This document shows, one piece after another, positions 9,078 through 17,067 of a stretch of DNA of 64,000 bases; position 1 is the stretch's first letter, and the number at the start of each line of letters is the position of its first letter. The position numbers were made by a program, and so were the translations under genes. The stretch is from Planctomycetota bacterium (GTDB lineage Bacteria; Planctomycetota; UBA8742; UBA2392): NCBI GenBank assembly GCA_016712285.1, contig JADJRK010000001.1, positions 4,058,761 through 4,122,760 of the forward strand, in the 5' to 3' direction. The notes beneath the pieces are model-generated. The model saw nothing but the letters and a program-made list of their open reading frames with translations. It had not been told where the DNA came from and ran no database searches.

Positions 9078-9155
9078 GCAATTCTTCAACGAATCCGGCG
9101 CCCGCGCGTTCCATGGTTGTCGTTTCTCAACCAAAACGCCCGCCGGAGATTCCCC

Positions 9156-10472
9156 ATGTCGCCACGCATTGCATTGCCTGTCCTGCTGCTCCTCTGCGCC
9201 ACCGGCCTGAGCGCCCAACGCTGGAGCCAGCCGAAATCAAACGTCACGGGCGAGGCCTGCCCCGAGCTGCTGCTCGAAGAAGAAATGGTGCAGGGCCCCA
9301 AGCTGACCCAGGACGACTTCGACGGCAAAGTCGTCTTCTTCATGTTCTATCGCCGCGACTGCCAGGGCTGCGAGACCATCGCCATGCCGCGGCTGCAAAA
9401 GCTGTGGGAGCGTTACAAAGACAGCAAGTGCGTGCTGGTGCTGGCGATCAACACGGCGTTTGACAAAGAAACCTACCCCTACCTCGCCGATGTCGAACAG
9501 ACGCGCGAGCACCTGAAACGCATGCGCTGGGAAATGCCCGTCGCGCGCGACTTTGACGAACTTTCGTATGAGCTGTTCGAACTCGACGAAGAGGTCGGCA
9601 CCCCGCAAGCCGTCATCGTTGACCAGCACGGCACCGTGCGCGACCACGACTGGTACTCAGCCGAGCCGGAATGGGAACACCTTGAGGCGACCTTTGAACG
9701 CCTCTCGGCAAACCTGAACTGTGACTGCCACGTCAAGCCGCGCGAAGTCACGCGCGCCTGCCGCGGCTCGTTCGACGCCTTCGAAGAGGGCGACTACACC
9801 AAGGCGTGGGACGAAGCCGACGCCGTGGACAAGTCGCTGGTGTCAGGCGACGACGACCGCAAAGACGCCAAGTACATGAAAGAGTTCGTAGAAAACCTGG
9901 CGCGCAAGAAGATGCAGCGCATCGAGCATAACTTCTACTACGACCCGATAGATGCCTTGGATCGCGCCAAGCCGGTGCTCGACAAGTTCAAGGGCGTGCC
10001 CGGCGTAAGCAAGTTCAGCGCCCGCATCGAAGAATGGGCAAAGTCCGGCATGTTGGAGGATTTCGTCAAGGCCCGCGACGAGCTGGAGAAGATTGACTCA
10101 GAGTTCGGCGAGATCACGAAAAAGGGCGGCGTCACAGACGACGCCAAGGCGCAGTACCTCAAGAAGCTCGAGGGCATTGCCGAAAAATCAGGCAACAACG
10201 CGATCGGCGCCCGGGCCCGTAACCGCATCGGCACCGTCAGCGGCAAGGCACAGCCGGCGCTGACACGCGGCAACAGGGGCGGCGGCGACACAGCCAAGGC
10301 AGGCCCAACCCGCAATTCCGGAAGCGCCAAGCCCGGCGCCGACAGCGGCAGCAAGAGCCGCGTAGGCTCGTCCGGATCAAGCAAGCCGGAAACCCGCAAC
10401 GCCACGCCCCGCGCCAAGACCGACATGCGAGCCACCCGCAGCTCCCGCAGCAAAGTAAAGTCAGGCGGCTAA
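9156..10472 (+). CDS. secreted thioredoxin-like (TlpA/AhpC-TSA-like) domain protein with long low-complexity tail
   Basis: Signal peptide MSPRIALPVLLLLCATGLSAQ; CQGC redox motif in FDGKVVFFMFYRRDCQGCE; Ser/Gly/Lys-rich C-terminus. Confidence 0.65.
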   Translation: MSPRIALPVLLLLCATGLSAQRWSQPKSNVTGEACPELLLEEEMVQGPKLTQDDFDGKVVFFMFYRRDCQGCETIAMPRLQKLWERYKDSKCVLVLAINTAFDKETYPYLADVEQTREHLKRMRWEMPVARDFDELSYELFELDEEVGTPQAVIVDQHGTVRDHDWYSAEPEWEHLEATFERLSANLNCDCHVKPREVTRACRGSFDAFEEGDYTKAWDEADAVDKSLVSGDDDRKDAKYMKEFVENLARKKMQRIEHNFYYDPIDALDRAKPVLDKFKGVPGVSKFSARIEEWAKSGMLEDFVKARDELEKIDSEFGEITKKGGVTDDAKAQYLKKLEGIAEKSGNNAIGARARNRIGTVSGKAQPALTRGNRGGGDTAKAGPTRNSGSAKPGADSGSKSRVGSSGSSKPETRNATPRAKTDMRATRSSRSKVKSGG

Positions 10473-10657
10473 CCGCCCCGCAAGAGTGAACGCCAGACCA
10501 GCGATCAACAAAGCCGTCCGGCCCCGCGCGCAAACGCGGGGCCGAACTGCGCTTCCCAATACTCGCGTCGGACAGCCGAGGCCACGGCCGAGAATGCAGC
10601 CTTTCGCCGGTTGCCAATTCGCCTACGTTGCCGGTGGTCAGAAGCGCGGCGCTCAAG

Positions 10658-10849
10658 TCAAGAAACACGGTTTCGGTGTGGGGCGCCCATGCAGGCGAAC
10701 CACAAGGGGGACAGGCACCTCCGCTGCGCTGCGGTGCCAGTCCCGGGGCCCGCCTGGTCCTCGTGGCGGAATCGGTGGACCGTGGTTACGCCGTTGGTGG
10801 CCAGCTCGTGCACCAGTGAAGCCATGCCCTTGCCGTAGATGTACTGCAC
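10658..10849 (-). CDS. paralogous module ORF copy 1 (GSVQYIYGKGMASLVHELATNGVTTVHRFRHEDQAG...), orphan, start uncertain
   Basis: Minus-frame peptide conserved with copies 2 and 3; substitutions between copies are mostly synonymous or conservative in this frame; stop at 10658. Confidence 0.4.
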   Translation of the reverse strand: MQYIYGKGMASLVHELATNGVTTVHRFRHEDQAGPGTGTAAQRRCLSPLWFACMGAPHRNRVS

Positions 10850-10900
10850 CGAGCCCGTCTCGGTGTCCTCATCATCATAACGGATTTCGCCGGCCTTGGA
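10690..10900 (-). repeat. ~200-bp repeat family copy 1
   Basis: ~90% nucleotide identity to 12300-12553 and 13390-13628. Confidence 0.8.
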
Positions 10901-10987
10901 TCACTGTCATCACCGCCCCGGAAGTCATCGGACCTTGCAAAGAGGGCATTCTCGGAAAGGCCAGAGAAGTGCCCTGTTGATTCAGAT

Positions 10988-12208
10988 CTACCGATTCAGG
11001 GTAAGGTCAACTGGTCGATCACCAAACGCCTCACTAATCTTTGCGCGGACGCTATTAAGCTCTGCCGCGTTTACATGAGACAAACCACTTACAAATACTT
11101 TAGTAACGACTTTTAGGTTCCCTATAATCAATAGTCCCTGAACCGTAGCTGCTGATGCCTCAAGCATTCTCAACGTTTCAAGTTTCGGTAACCGTGACGC
11201 AATCGCTATCAACGCGTCGTTCGCTAGCGACGGGCCGCTAACCTCAAGTCGCCGCAACCGTTGAAGCTTCTCCAAGCCCGCAAGTTTGCTTGTAGTAATC
11301 GCTGGGAGGCTTGTAAACACGATAGACTCGCAGGCCATCGACTTGCCCAGATCGTCGAAAAGCTCGCCAGTGAGATTGACGGAATTGTGCAGCTCCAAGT
11401 GTGTCAACGAAAGAGATTTTATCAACCGGCTCAGGGCGCTCTCGGTGACGCTACTGCCTAGAGTAAGAGCAAGAGACCTTAGCTTGCCACCTTCAAGATG
11501 GATAAGGTGAGCATCACCGATGCGCCCGCCTTTCAACGCGAGGGACACCAACTGTGGCGCACCAGCGAGCACCTCAATCTCCTCCTCATCTAACTGGAAT
11601 GATCCTCTAAGCTCAAGTTCCCTGAGACCTTGTTGCGGCAGCCATAAGTTAAATGAATCTGGCAATGTGATTACATCCGCTAACAGTAGTCGCTTCAAGT
11701 TGCGAAGCCCCTTAAGTCCGCAAAAGGCCTTGCGGTCGATGTCGGCGCAGTACCAGCACTCGAGGCGCTCCAGTTGCGAGAGGTCGGCAAACGCCTCCAG
11801 CCAACTCGAGTCAAAATTTGCTTGCGTCCGCACCTCGATTTCCACGGGTACCGAAGCACCACGCAAATTGCGAAGGTGCAAGGACGTGACTTGCCTCACT
11901 CGGTCTATGATCAGGCGCCTGAGTGACTTGAATCTGGTCAGATCCTCGGCCCAGGCTGCTGGTGCGTCCGGTACGCTGCAATCACATAGCCAGAGATCGG
12001 TAACACTGTCTCGGCTTGTGAGGTCGATAGCATTGAAGAGGACCGCCCATTCCACCGCATACAGCTTTACGCGCTTTCGGTTCATCAACTGAGTGGCGTC
12101 AGGCTTGTTCTGTACAACCGCCCAACTCTCTTCTGCTAACTCTTCTGCGTGCAGAAAGGGCATAGGAAGCAGTATCAGGAAAGCAACTATCAATAGCGGA
12201 GTGTTCAT
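10988..12208 (-). CDS. leucine-rich-repeat (RNI-like) protein with N-terminal signal/anchor
   Basis: MNTPLLIVAFLILLPMPFLHA hydrophobic N-terminus; repeated L..L.L.N LRR units; GC ~48% against ~65% background; reading frame stays open upstream into module copy 2 (GTG at 12484). Confidence 0.6.
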   Translation of the reverse strand: MNTPLLIVAFLILLPMPFLHAEELAEESWAVVQNKPDATQLMNRKRVKLYAVEWAVLFNAIDLTSRDSVTDLWLCDCSVPDAPAAWAEDLTRFKSLRRLIIDRVRQVTSLHLRNLRGASVPVEIEVRTQANFDSSWLEAFADLSQLERLECWYCADIDRKAFCGLKGLRNLKRLLLADVITLPDSFNLWLPQQGLRELELRGSFQLDEEEIEVLAGAPQLVSLALKGGRIGDAHLIHLEGGKLRSLALTLGSSVTESALSRLIKSLSLTHLELHNSVNLTGELFDDLGKSMACESIVFTSLPAITTSKLAGLEKLQRLRRLEVSGPSLANDALIAIASRLPKLETLRMLEASAATVQGLLIIGNLKVVTKVFVSGLSHVNAAELNSVRAKISEAFGDRPVDLTLNR

Positions 12209-12299
12209 AATACTATCCCCCTGACGGCGGAATATCTTCGTTCTCGGGGTCGGAAACGGGGTCAGGCTACTTGTAGATGCCTTTACTGTACGGCTTTCT

Positions 12300-12553
12300 G
12301 GGTTGCGCTTCGTTTCTCCTGCTGCATTGGCGAATGATAAAGGGGACAGGCACCTCCGCTGCGCTGCGGAGCCAGTCACCGCGCCCGCCTGGTCTTCGTG
12401 GCGGAAGCGGTGGATCGTGGTTACGCCGTTGGTTGCCAGCTCGTGCACCAGTGAACCCATGCCCTTGCCGTAGATGTACTGCACCGAGCCCGTCTCGGCG
12501 TCCTCATCATCATAACGGATTTCGCCGGCCTTGGCCTCGCCATTTCCGCCGCG
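12300..12553 (-). repeat. ~200-bp repeat family copy 2 (coding module, in-frame with LRR gene)
   Basis: Aligned by eye to copies 1 and 3; encodes GEIRYDDEDAETGSVQYIYGKGMGSLVHELATNGVTTIHRFRHEDQAG. Confidence 0.8.
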
Positions 12554-12558
12554 TCACG

Positions 12559-13191
12559 TTACGGAATGTCCACTTGCACTCTGCAGGTTACATCGAAGCG
12601 CACTTCACATCGTGCAACCAACTCCACTTGCGATACATCCGACGTCTGCCGATACAACTCAGCAGTGCTGGATAAGACATCGCCGTGAGCTAGGAGTGGA
12701 ATCGATAGCTGCGCCGGACTTTCCTGTTCGGGAATGCCATCGCGCCACGCCAGAAGCTCTCTCAGGTACGCAGCATCTACTTGCATGGTAGTTGTAGATA
12801 CCTGCCCGCTGTGGTAATGCACCCGCACAACTGCGGAGTACTTGTACTCCGAGTCCTGAAGATCGACATCCCCGACTGATGGGACAAGTAGCAGGTTCAA
12901 GTTTTTCACGGCGGGTCTGTTGTCGATGAAGTAGACCGGCAGCCAAACACTTTGTTGTGCAGACGCGTCTTGCCATTCAACGTCGAAATCAATGAGGAAC
13001 ATACTCAGCGGCTCGGAGGACTCGTACACTGGGCTCGTTCTACACGACTCATGGATGCGGCAGTATTTGGACAGTGGATGCAGCGCCACCCACATTAGCG
13101 CAAGCAGTAGTACCATGCCTACAAAGATTAGGGCATGTTGCCGACTCAGTCGGCGACGACGTTGCTCGCACCCCTCCTTTCGTGTATTCAT
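12559..13191 (-). CDS. signal-anchored hypothetical protein (low-GC cargo gene)
   Basis: MNTRKEG..RRRR then TM ALIFVGMVLLLALMWVALHP; start ATG shares ATGA with the stop of the upstream small ORF; GC ~50%. Confidence 0.5.
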   Translation of the reverse strand: MNTRKEGCEQRRRRLSRQHALIFVGMVLLLALMWVALHPLSKYCRIHESCRTSPVYESSEPLSMFLIDFDVEWQDASAQQSVWLPVYFIDNRPAVKNLNLLLVPSVGDVDLQDSEYKYSAVVRVHYHSGQVSTTTMQVDAAYLRELLAWRDGIPEQESPAQLSIPLLAHGDVLSSTAELYRQTSDVSQVELVARCEVRFDVTCRVQVDIP

Positions 13192-13349
13192 TCGCAGTCC
13201 ACGCCTTGGTTGGGCGGCCAGTACTTGACGTACTCTTCCCAACCCAGTTTTTCAAAAGGAACGACATCTTCGAGTGTGTGTCCCGCCACGCCTTTCCCGT
13301 AGCGAACAACACTTCCGTCACTTGGCTTCTCCCCTCTCGCGGTGTTCAC
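13188..13349 (-). CDS. degenerate module copy 4 small ORF (VNTARGEKPSDGSVVRYGKGVAGHTLEDV...DCE)
   Basis: GSVVRYGKGVAGHTLEDV aligns to GSVQYIYGKGMGSLVHEL; GTG start overlaps the stop of the copy 3 ORF (GTGA); own stop overlaps the ATG of the next gene (ATGA). Confidence 0.35.
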   Translation of the reverse strand: MNTARGEKPSDGSVVRYGKGVAGHTLEDVVPFEKLGWEEYVKYWPPNQGVDCE

Positions 13350-13558
13350 CCTATCAGGTGTTCCAGCTCCTGCACCACTCTCTCTTGATGGAACGAAAAC
13401 GGGGTCAATGATGAGGGGGGCAGGCACCTCCGCTGCGCTGTGGAGCCAGTCCCCGCGCCCGCCTGGTTCTCATGGCGGAATCGGTGGACCGTGGTTACGC
13501 CGTTGGTTGCAAGCTCGTGCACCAGTGAACCCATGCCCTTGCCGTGGATGTACTGCAC
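13346..13558 (-). CDS. paralogous module ORF copy 3 (start uncertain)
   Basis: Encodes NIRYHVKGTETGSVQYIHGKGMGSLVHELATNGVTTVHRFRHENQAG; stop at 13346; open frame upstream of 13558 overlaps the hydrolase gene and is rejected. Confidence 0.4.
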   Translation of the reverse strand: MQYIHGKGMGSLVHELATNGVTTVHRFRHENQAGAGTGSTAQRRCLPPSSLTPFSFHQERVVQELEHLIG

Positions 13559-13628
13559 CGAGCCCGTCTCGGTGCCTTTGACATGATAACGGATGTTGCC
13601 GACCTTGGGCCTGCCATTTCTGATGCTC
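13390..13628 (-). repeat. ~200-bp repeat family copy 3
   Basis: Alignment to copies 1 and 2 with a ~70-nt deletion in the linker region. Confidence 0.8.
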
Positions 13629-13762
13629 CTGTCCCGGTTCTGGTGGACCTGCATGGTGCTGGGTGCCTGGGCCGTGCAATCGTCCTCGTGCATGCCCGTT
13701 CGGGGGCGGGTTGCGGTGCCTCGTCTGTGCGCTATCTTGGCGGCTTGGGGCCTGGAGATGCG

Positions 13763-16350: not shown

Positions 16351-17067
16351 GTGGCTGGAAAACGTTCACCCGAGAATACCCTGAAGAAGCAGGCATTCAT
16401 TGCCAAGCTCTTGAAAGACAAACCCGGCACAACGCTGAATGAAGCCGGCAAGCTCGTGAAGAAAGAATTCGGCACGCAGCTCGCGTACGACAAGCAGCGC
16501 GAAGCCTATGTCGCCGCGGGCGGCAAGATTGACACCCGTCGCGGGCCCGGCAAGGGCAGCAAGCGCGGCCCCGGTCGCCCCAAGGGCAGCAAGGGCAAGC
16601 CCGGCCCGCGCAAGTATGGAAAGCGCAGCCCCGAGGCAACGCGCGCCAAGCAAGACTTCGTGGCGGAGCTGCTGCGCAGCAACCCCGACATGAGCATGAA
16701 CGAGTGCGGCAAGCGCGTGCGCACAAGGTTCGGCAGCCAGCTTGCATTTGACCGCTTGAAGCAGGCTTTCCAGGCCGCCGGCGGGAAAGTCGGCAAGCCG
16801 GGCCGCCGCGCCAAGCCGCGCCCGAAGGTGGACCGTCGCATCGGCCGCCGCGCCGCGGACCAGGCCGCTGCCAAGATCCAGCATGTGCTGGGTGGCATGC
16901 CCAAGCACGTGGTGGTGATGCATCTCAGCAGCAGTGTTGACACGAATGAATTCTCCACGCGCGAACAGGCTGTGACCTTTGCCCGCAGCCAGGTGCTGTC
17001 GGGTGTGCCGGTGTCGCATATCGCTTACTATCTGCGCCAGCCGCTGGAGATTTCGGTCGGCATCTAG
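16351..17067 (+). CDS. lysine-rich basic protein with internal tandem duplication, possible nucleoid-associated or DNA-binding protein
   Basis: Two ~55-aa repeats (RSPENTLKKQAFIAKLL...AAGGKI and RSPEATRAKQDFVAELL...AAGGKV); GTG start with GAGGAG RBS. Confidence 0.6.
   Translation: MAGKRSPENTLKKQAFIAKLLKDKPGTTLNEAGKLVKKEFGTQLAYDKQREAYVAAGGKIDTRRGPGKGSKRGPGRPKGSKGKPGPRKYGKRSPEATRAKQDFVAELLRSNPDMSMNECGKRVRTRFGSQLAFDRLKQAFQAAGGKVGKPGRRAKPRPKVDRRIGRRAADQAAAKIQHVLGGMPKHVVVMHLSSSVDTNEFSTREQAVTFARSQVLSGVPVSHIAYYLRQPLEISVGI

Follow-up and report, generated by a model that had tools for sequence, protein, structure and literature searches.

The locus examined here lies in a 64,000-nucleotide (nt) stretch of DNA from a Planctomycetota bacterium (GenBank assembly GCA_016712285.1, contig JADJRK010000001.1), the whole of which is referred to below as the window. 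A segment of high guanine–cytosine (GC) content recurs there on the minus strand, and its copies are interspersed with unrelated genes of lower GC content. This arrangement raises the question of what the repeated segment encodes and how the genes that follow it came to stand there. Homology shows the segment to derive from the conserved core of a polymorphic toxin of the Rhs (YD-repeat) type, and the locus is very probably a relic, in which dissociated Rhs core fragments and orphan immunity genes remain in an array from which the toxin parts have been deleted. The features of the array are as follows, with protein lengths given in amino acids (aa):

13346..13655, minus strand: core fragment c3, the sole copy with an ATG; repeat unit at 13403-13608
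13188..13379, minus strand: remnant of an Rhs C-terminal tip (AMOP-like), the last 62 codons and the stop, in a frame that differs from that of c3
12559..13191, minus strand: gene for a 210-aa signal-anchored protein with an Arg-rich N terminus (MNTRKEGCEQRRRRLSRQH) and one transmembrane (TM) helix; GC 53.6%
12254..12553, minus strand: core fragment c2, without an ATG; repeat unit at 12329-12534
10988..12208, minus strand: gene for a 406-aa leucine-rich repeat (LRR) protein with a cleavable-type signal peptide (MNTPLLIVAFLILLPMPFLHA) and a weak Pfam LRR_14 match; GC 52.4%, GC at third codon positions (GC3) 57%
10658..10900, minus strand: core fragment c1, without an ATG, a tip or a downstream gene; repeat unit at 10694-10899

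The repeated unit and its place in the Rhs core

Three direct copies of a 206-nt unit were located by a repeat finder, with pairwise nucleotide identities of 93% (c1-c2), 87% (c1-c3), and 88% (c2-c3); the three same-strand copies of about 200 bp reported in a preliminary description of the locus were thus recovered. A 79-nt core of the unit was matched, with three or fewer mismatches, at just three sites in the window, where none would be expected by chance. All three units translate on the minus strand to ...KAGEIRYDDED.ETGSVQYIYGKGMGSLVHELATNGVTT(I/V)HRFRHE(D/N)QAG..., followed by ..TG..AQRRCL.P from a 55-nt tail common to the three. By the Nei-Gojobori method, the ratio of nonsynonymous to synonymous differences (pN/pS) was 0.30-0.63 for this frame, compared with about 0.7-2 for the remaining two, from which it follows that the minus-strand module frame is the correct one; the signal of constraint among the copies is weak and the counts are small, with synonymous/nonsynonymous differences of 3/3 (c1-c2), 5/10 (c1-c3), and 6/11 (c2-c3). 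Translation and frame-wise pN/pS therefore agree with the peptide-coding frame proposed earlier, but the accompanying statement that the differences are mostly synonymous does not fit these counts.

For identification of the module, a profile search was run over 1.84 billion representative proteins, and ten proteins were found. P0005 (2998 aa, metagenomic) carries the module at residues 2345-2398 (E 4e-19), P0003 (668 aa) at residues 21-74 (E 1e-22), and P0006 (777 aa) at residues 332-385, the E-values for these three ranging from 1e-22 to 7e-11. P0007, P0009, and P0010 are shorter fragments that match the profile, and P0008 (1288 aa, nine short stretches) was discarded as a low-complexity repeat match. 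By blastx and tblastn, the window module is 50-68% identical to the Rhs relatives over 50-67 aa. P0005 contains the Pfam RHS_repeat and DUF6531 and the NCBIfam YD_repeat (YD_repeat_2x) models, which identify it as an Rhs protein. YD-type repeats precede the module in the Rhs relatives, where it continues without a break as ...HEDQAGSLIGVTDEDG..YxDFG, the whole run reading ...HEDQAGSLIGVTDEDGxRTDEYFYxDFG... This run resembles YYHxDHLGS..TDxxG..Y.PFG, which we take to be the motif preceding the canonical Rhs core end.

The position of the module within the core could be estimated from a metagenomic Rhs locus of planctomycete type (L002, JGI 3300048592), in which P0005 is followed by a 199-aa partner and then by a 1077-aa orphan core fragment. 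This orphan has the post-module motif at about residue 530 and a match to TIGR03696 (Rhs_assc_core) at 813-862, which passes the model's cut-off (40 bits against 32.5), and it ends in NDPSGL; the module can therefore be placed in the Rhs shell, with about 300-400 residues between it and the canonical core/tip boundary downstream. YD/RHS repeats, the Rhs-associated core domain, and the DPxGL end were all found among the relatives that carry the module. The module had previously gone unrecognised and been considered a possible cassette or leader module; its exclusion as a diversity-generating retroelement, an attC site, or the end of an insertion sequence still stands, whereas the profile search assigns it to an Rhs core, not to a stand-alone leader or a new kind of coding module.

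Other searches returned little. The module segment has no match to Pfam, PADLOC, or NCBIfam models, the Rhs region around it has no PDB sequence match, and an AlphaFold model of the module region was unusable (predicted local distance difference test score, pLDDT, of 35). Apart from c3 of the window itself, a word-indexed protein search with the module retrieved a single relative, P0002 (68 aa). No locus was found with the window module when GTDB genomes, JGI metagenomes, and IMG/VR were scanned; a locus scan with an Rhs-based profile gave one, L007.

Examination of the three fragments showed that only c3 has a conventional start. Its open reading frame (ORF) runs from 13655 to 13346, from MQVHQNRDRS to HRFRHENQAG, and then through a 39-aa tail that matches nothing; similarity to Rhs proteins spans 13621-13433. 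A longer, 115-aa version is annotated by NCBI as IPK87_17080. The frame of c2 opens at 12553, directly after an in-frame TGA (12554-12556), with a GTG at 12484 as its earliest possible start, and that of c1 opens at 10900, again directly after an in-frame TGA; only a GTG inside the module could start either of them. The notion of a leader-module family is thus unsupported, and c1 is, as had been described, without a downstream gene. The c2 frame stays open into the LRR gene, which accounts for the chimera annotated as IPK87_17070 (10988-12484), a 498-aa product that begins at the GTG within c2 and runs on into the LRR gene. This annotation is likely to be wrong, the true start of the LRR gene likely being the ATG at 12208, which is followed by a signal peptide.

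The unit tail was compared with the Rhs continuation, and no significant similarity was found (shuffle p 0.1-0.5). For this reason, and although some BLAST alignments ran on into the tail, the idea that it continues the Rhs core in frame in a degenerate form was rejected. The AAQRRCL.P ending that had been considered conserved is so among the three window copies, but its similarity to any relative is not significant. An 11-mer, TGACCCCGTTT (minus strand), occurs at 13385-13395 and 12252-12262, just downstream of the c3 and c2 units; its recurrence points to a stretch between the common tail and the 11-mer that is about 67 nt longer in c2 than in c3.

The only close relative of the window module is found on an unrelated contig (L001), with 74-76% amino acid and 85-88% nucleotide identity (pS 0.23-0.37). 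There, within the region 218-714, an ATG-initiated module ORF of 68 aa ends five codons after QAG and is followed by unrelated cargo. A stand-alone HNH endonuclease gene (101 aa; Pfam HNH, E 2e-7) precedes this ORF, the stop codon of the one overlapping the start of the other, and a 149-aa gene without a known family abuts its end. The window and L001 thus have the break after QAG in common, and P0010 shows it roughly.

These observations bear on whether the module might be a functional Rhs-derived small protein or leader of about 65-100 aa with variable secreted partners, serving as an adaptor, a chaperone, or half of a two-gene toxin/immunity-like pair. Consistent with such a role are the ATG and annotation of c3, the 68-aa ORF of L001 abutting the next gene, pN/pS values of 0.3-0.6 in the module frame, and the recurrent break after QAG. 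We nevertheless regard it as quite improbable: there is no intact ORF in every copy, c1 and c2 having no start codon upstream of the internal GTG; the segment is internal to a very large repeat protein, with no more than three Rhs relatives, full or partial, and some fragments among 1.8 billion representatives; neither the family models nor the structure model lends it an identity of its own; and the partners are unrelated to each other.

Lower-GC genes and the remnant of a toxin tip

The units have a GC content of 63-66%, compared with 52.4% for the LRR gene, 53.6% for the 210-aa gene, and 62.3% for the window on average; GC3 is 79% in the core stubs and 57-59% in the cargo. The stubs therefore match the genome, and the contrast of a GC-rich core with lower-GC cargo that is typical of Rhs loci was found here. 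The drop measures 10-13 points (63-66% against 52-54%), rather than the 15 or so estimated earlier.

What had been described as a fourth, degenerate copy of the module (13188-13349) has no significant similarity to it (BLASTP E 1.3-2.3) and is instead the end of an Rhs tip. Its frame is open from 13469 (ORF 13427-13188), and 39 of 62 residues (63%) are identical to residues 2931-2991 of P0005 (E 2e-22); in tblastn, the tip of the Rhs relative was matched to the window at 13379-13194. The P0005 tip, residues ~2840-2998 (8800-9305 of L002), is an AMOP domain, as judged by Pfam PF03782 (E 1e-11) and by the AMOP domain of Isthmin-1 (PDB 9c6t, E 4e-9), of which the window retains just the C-terminal third. 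To our knowledge, AMOP is otherwise known from animal extracellular proteins. It goes unmentioned in the 2012 survey of polymorphic toxins (Zhang et al. 2012, PMC3482391).

The stop codon of the remnant, TGA, overlaps the ATG of the 210-aa gene (ATGA). In the same way, P0005 is followed, with the same 4-nt ATGA overlap, by the gene for a 199-aa protein of the same architecture. Given this gene of similar build at the corresponding position in the full-length relative, the 210-aa protein is probably the immunity protein that is cognate to the lost AMOP-type tip. It is signal-anchored and encoded at 13191-12559, as the TM-anchored protein noted previously after a module copy. NCBI's call for this gene, IPK87_17075 (12559-13002), is a 147-aa version that leaves out the TM anchor; the ATG at 13191 starts the 210-aa version. 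Only the protein itself was retrieved with the 210-aa sequence in a word-indexed protein search, and Pfam, PADLOC, and NCBIfam scans of the tip remnant, the 210-aa protein, and the LRR protein gave nothing beyond the weak LRR match.

The second cargo gene, at 12208-10988, encodes the LRR protein that had been noted after a module copy, and a signal peptide is present. No homologue other than the protein itself was found in any searched collection, and a locus scan was likewise empty. An LRR class of immunity proteins exists in polymorphic toxin systems (Zhang et al. 2012, PMC3482391); with this precedent, the position of the gene between two core stubs, and its low GC content, our best guess is that the product is a candidate orphan immunity protein of the Imm-LRR type.

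The same design is seen in relatives elsewhere. Within L002, the GC content is 60-64% in the core and 46-54% in the tip and immunity gene. L003 has an immunity-like gene, then a frameshifted core fragment that starts about 65 codons upstream of the module, then a full tip and a lipoprotein-type partner. In L007, a 161-aa gene precedes a fragment whose sequence begins at ..GGGGCGGNSGEPKAGEVRY and breaks off after 190 aa. L003, L005, and L007 all have an immunity-like gene with a core fragment behind it, of varying length and in some cases decayed; decayed fragments occur in L005 and L004.

From the homology, the truncations, the coupling of the tip end to the 210-aa gene, and the GC pattern, a history of the locus may be proposed. 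Each 206-nt unit is a stub of the conserved core, more exactly of its YD-repeat shell, from Rhs polymorphic toxins of a planctomycete clade, and the lower-GC genes after the units would be leftovers of laterally acquired tip/immunity cassettes. By analogy with C-terminal displacement as modelled by Jackson et al. (2009), cassettes that each comprised a core fragment, a tip, and an immunity gene may have arrived one after another and recombined via the conserved core segment, each event pushing the older cassettes downstream. What is missing today, namely the parent rhs gene, the toxin domains, and about 400 codons of core beyond the stubs, would have been lost through later deletions. The stubs would not be expected to yield a working protein, whereas the immunity-type genes, if expressed, were probably kept because they protect against the toxins of neighbours.

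The same truncations speak to a livelier alternative, in which the stubs form a silent-cassette store and act as homology handles for swapping tip and immunity genes with a full-length rhs gene elsewhere, in the manner of orphan Rhs or contact-dependent growth inhibition (CDI) modules or of pilS cassettes. The stubs have a genome-like GC content and are 87-93% identical to each other, as would suit such a store, and recombination from orphan to main module has been shown in Salmonella, at least as Koskiniemi 2014 is cited in PMC5361080. There is, however, no usable tip to donate, since c3 has only the last 62 codons, out of frame, and c2 and c1 have none. About 400 core codons between the module and the DPxGL end are also missing, and a crossover in a stub would therefore truncate the recipient gene. 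We consider a live store of this kind to be very unlikely.

Array edges and genomic surroundings

Three further features lie at or near the ends of the array:

13628..13656, no strand assigned: right arm of an inverted repeat, 29 nt, CCTGTCCCGGTTCTGGTGGACCTGCATGG; right outer edge of the array, covering the c3 ATG and first codons
10687..10715, no strand assigned: left arm of the inverted repeat, 29 nt, CCATGCAGGCGAACCACAAGGGGGACAGG; left outer edge of the array
10516..10547, minus strand: strong intrinsic-terminator-like hairpin downstream of c1, 14 pairs of which 11 are G-C

The arms of the inverted repeat match at 23 of 29 positions, a value reached by none of 2986 random pairs of 81-nt sampling windows. 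The head of c3 is matched by the tail of c1 only; the tails of c2 and c3 do not match.

On one side, the array is flanked by HMG-CoA-lyase-like, enoyl-CoA hydratase, and AhpC/TSA-like genes. The last of these (9117-10472) is convergent with the array, and the hairpin between the two is probably a bidirectional terminator. On the other side, a divergent S9 peptidase gene and a histidine kinase gene are found, with MurJ and SMC genes farther off. No integrase, transposase, or secretion gene was seen among the ORFs scanned (3.0-8.8, 9.1-10.5, and 13.8-25.6 kb). Rfam and tRNA scans of the window gave only three tRNAs, all distant from the array, and no enrichment of sigma-70-type promoters was observed.

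With the edges defined, site-specific capture could be considered, either with the 206-nt repeats as duplicated attachment sites (integron-like, or by serial island integration into a gene 3' end) or with the 3 kb as a mobile block bounded by the 29-nt terminal inverted repeats. The exact placement of the repeat on both array edges, its 23/29 match, and the lower-GC block between housekeeping genes are what such an origin would leave. It is nonetheless a far-fetched explanation: no integrase or transposase occurs among the scanned flanking genes, the hairpin of the repeat tail is no more stable than those of shuffled sequences (z -0.6 to +1.2), inspection by eye of the array edges revealed no target-site duplication, and the repeat is coding and explained by Rhs homology. 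An integron-type array in particular was rejected, given the coding repeat, a hairpin no better than shuffles, and the lack of an integrase in the scanned genes.

Recombination without an integrase was also considered. The Rhs-derived module, of about 150 nt, might be the homology handle of toxin-less, single-gene immunity cassettes that are exchanged and stacked among planctomycetes by homology-facilitated recombination, with the 29-nt inverted repeat marking the block ends. This idea arises because the module is cut at the same codon, after HEDQAG, in the window and in L001, with unrelated cargo; if true, it would amount to an integrase-free but integron-like collecting of immunity genes. 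We judge it unlikely. Taken together, the QAG break, the L001 module, and the inverted repeat leave a small probability for handle-based cassette exchange or a bounded mobile block.

Apart from the array, an ORF of 238 aa at 16351-17067 has no Pfam match and contains an internal duplication of about 100 aa (..KKQAFIAKLLKDKPG..GTQLAYDKQREAYVAAGGK / ..AKQDFVAELLRSNPD..GSQLAFDRLKQAFQAAGGK). Its halves are parted by a Gly/Lys/Pro-rich stretch that corresponds to three 30-nt repeats at 16542-16631.

The probable relic array and known systems

Several observations weigh against the locus being a relic Rhs array. When the whole window was searched by tblastn with the Rhs relatives, it yielded no full-length rhs gene and no match other than the three stubs and the tip remnant; the gene upstream of c3 is the divergently transcribed S9 peptidase. 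The array thus lacks the attached parent gene of the textbook arrangement, in which an intact rhs gene stands upstream of the fragments. A core end (DPxGL) and a distinct toxin tip for each fragment were likewise not found, tip sequence being confined to the 62 out-of-frame codons at c3. Rhs similarity ends abruptly after QAG in all three copies and is followed by the common non-Rhs tail, from which it follows that the three stubs descend from one already truncated unit or have been homogenised; a simple displacement model predicts three independent intact cassettes instead, and the cargo differs among the stubs despite this common origin or homogenisation. The inverted repeat located exactly on both outer edges of the 3-kb array fits poorly. 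Some room for a function of the stub itself is left by a pN/pS below 1 in the module frame and by the intact, ATG-initiated, module-only ORF of L001. As for the cargo, the 210-aa protein and its 199-aa counterpart in L002 show weak pairwise similarity (E 0.024), the immunity role of the LRR protein is argued from position and precedent only, and neither cargo protein has a homologue of known function.

With these points considered, the reading we strongly favour is still that of a relic array in which dissociated Rhs core fragments are accompanied by orphan immunity genes. The resemblance to polymorphic cassette loci suggested in the preliminary description was right in kind, but what survives of the units is core stubs and immunity-type genes rather than intact cassettes. 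Three "hypothetical protein" annotations of a planctomycete metagenome-assembled genome (IPK87_17070, IPK87_17075, and IPK87_17080) would thereby become interpretable as a relic of interbacterial warfare. The analysis also documents a divergent and very rare Rhs clade, with a handful of relatives among 1.8 billion representative proteins and a part of its core missed by standard Rhs models, and it offers a testable toxin-immunity pair in the AMOP-type tip and the membrane-anchored protein of about 200 aa.

The nearest described parallels are the arrays of dissociated Rhs fragments. Downstream of rhs, Rhs loci carry directly repeated core fragments whose tips are dissimilar, with GC contents of 67.7% in the core and 46.4% in the tip; the fragments mostly lack start sites and are often degenerate, and tipless core fragments occur occasionally (Jackson et al. 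2009, PMC2935791). Like these arrays (see also Poole et al. 2011, PMC3150448), the window locus has GC-rich direct repeats, each followed by unrelated lower-GC sequence, most of its fragments have no start codon, one is tipless, and a probable immunity gene is coupled to a tip end. It differs from them in having no intact rhs gene and in the deletion of its toxin tips. In each of its fragments, moreover, the recognisable core amounts to only about 60 codons, which derive from a point ~300-400 residues before the DPxGL end and do not include DPxGL itself, and its three stubs share a non-Rhs tail. Furthermore, its Rhs clade is divergent, the module being missed by the Pfam and NCBIfam Rhs models.

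A second comparison is provided by arrays of orphan immunity genes at effector loci of type VI secretion systems (T6SS), in which 3' effector remnants persist upstream of the retained immunity genes (Kirchberger et al. 2017, PMC5361080), as well as by heterogeneous polyimmunity loci (Zhang et al. 2012, PMC3482391). As in these, immunity-type genes without toxins have been kept and were apparently acquired laterally, the 3' remnant of a displaced effector lies directly upstream of a probable immunity gene, and an LRR class of immunity protein is known. Unlike these, the window locus has no secretion-system genes among the nearby ORFs scanned and only two candidate immunity genes, neither of which belongs to a described Imm family.

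A third comparison is with L002, which shares with the window the module (55-64% identical to the window copies), the AMOP-like tip end (63%), and an ATGA-coupled gene for a signal-anchored protein of about 200 aa, with an orphan core fragment following. L002 is intact, with a full shell, a full tip, and an orphan that has the canonical Rhs core end, whereas the window holds stubs. The locus does not reveal a new kind of system; it belongs to a known kind, in an unusual state of decay.

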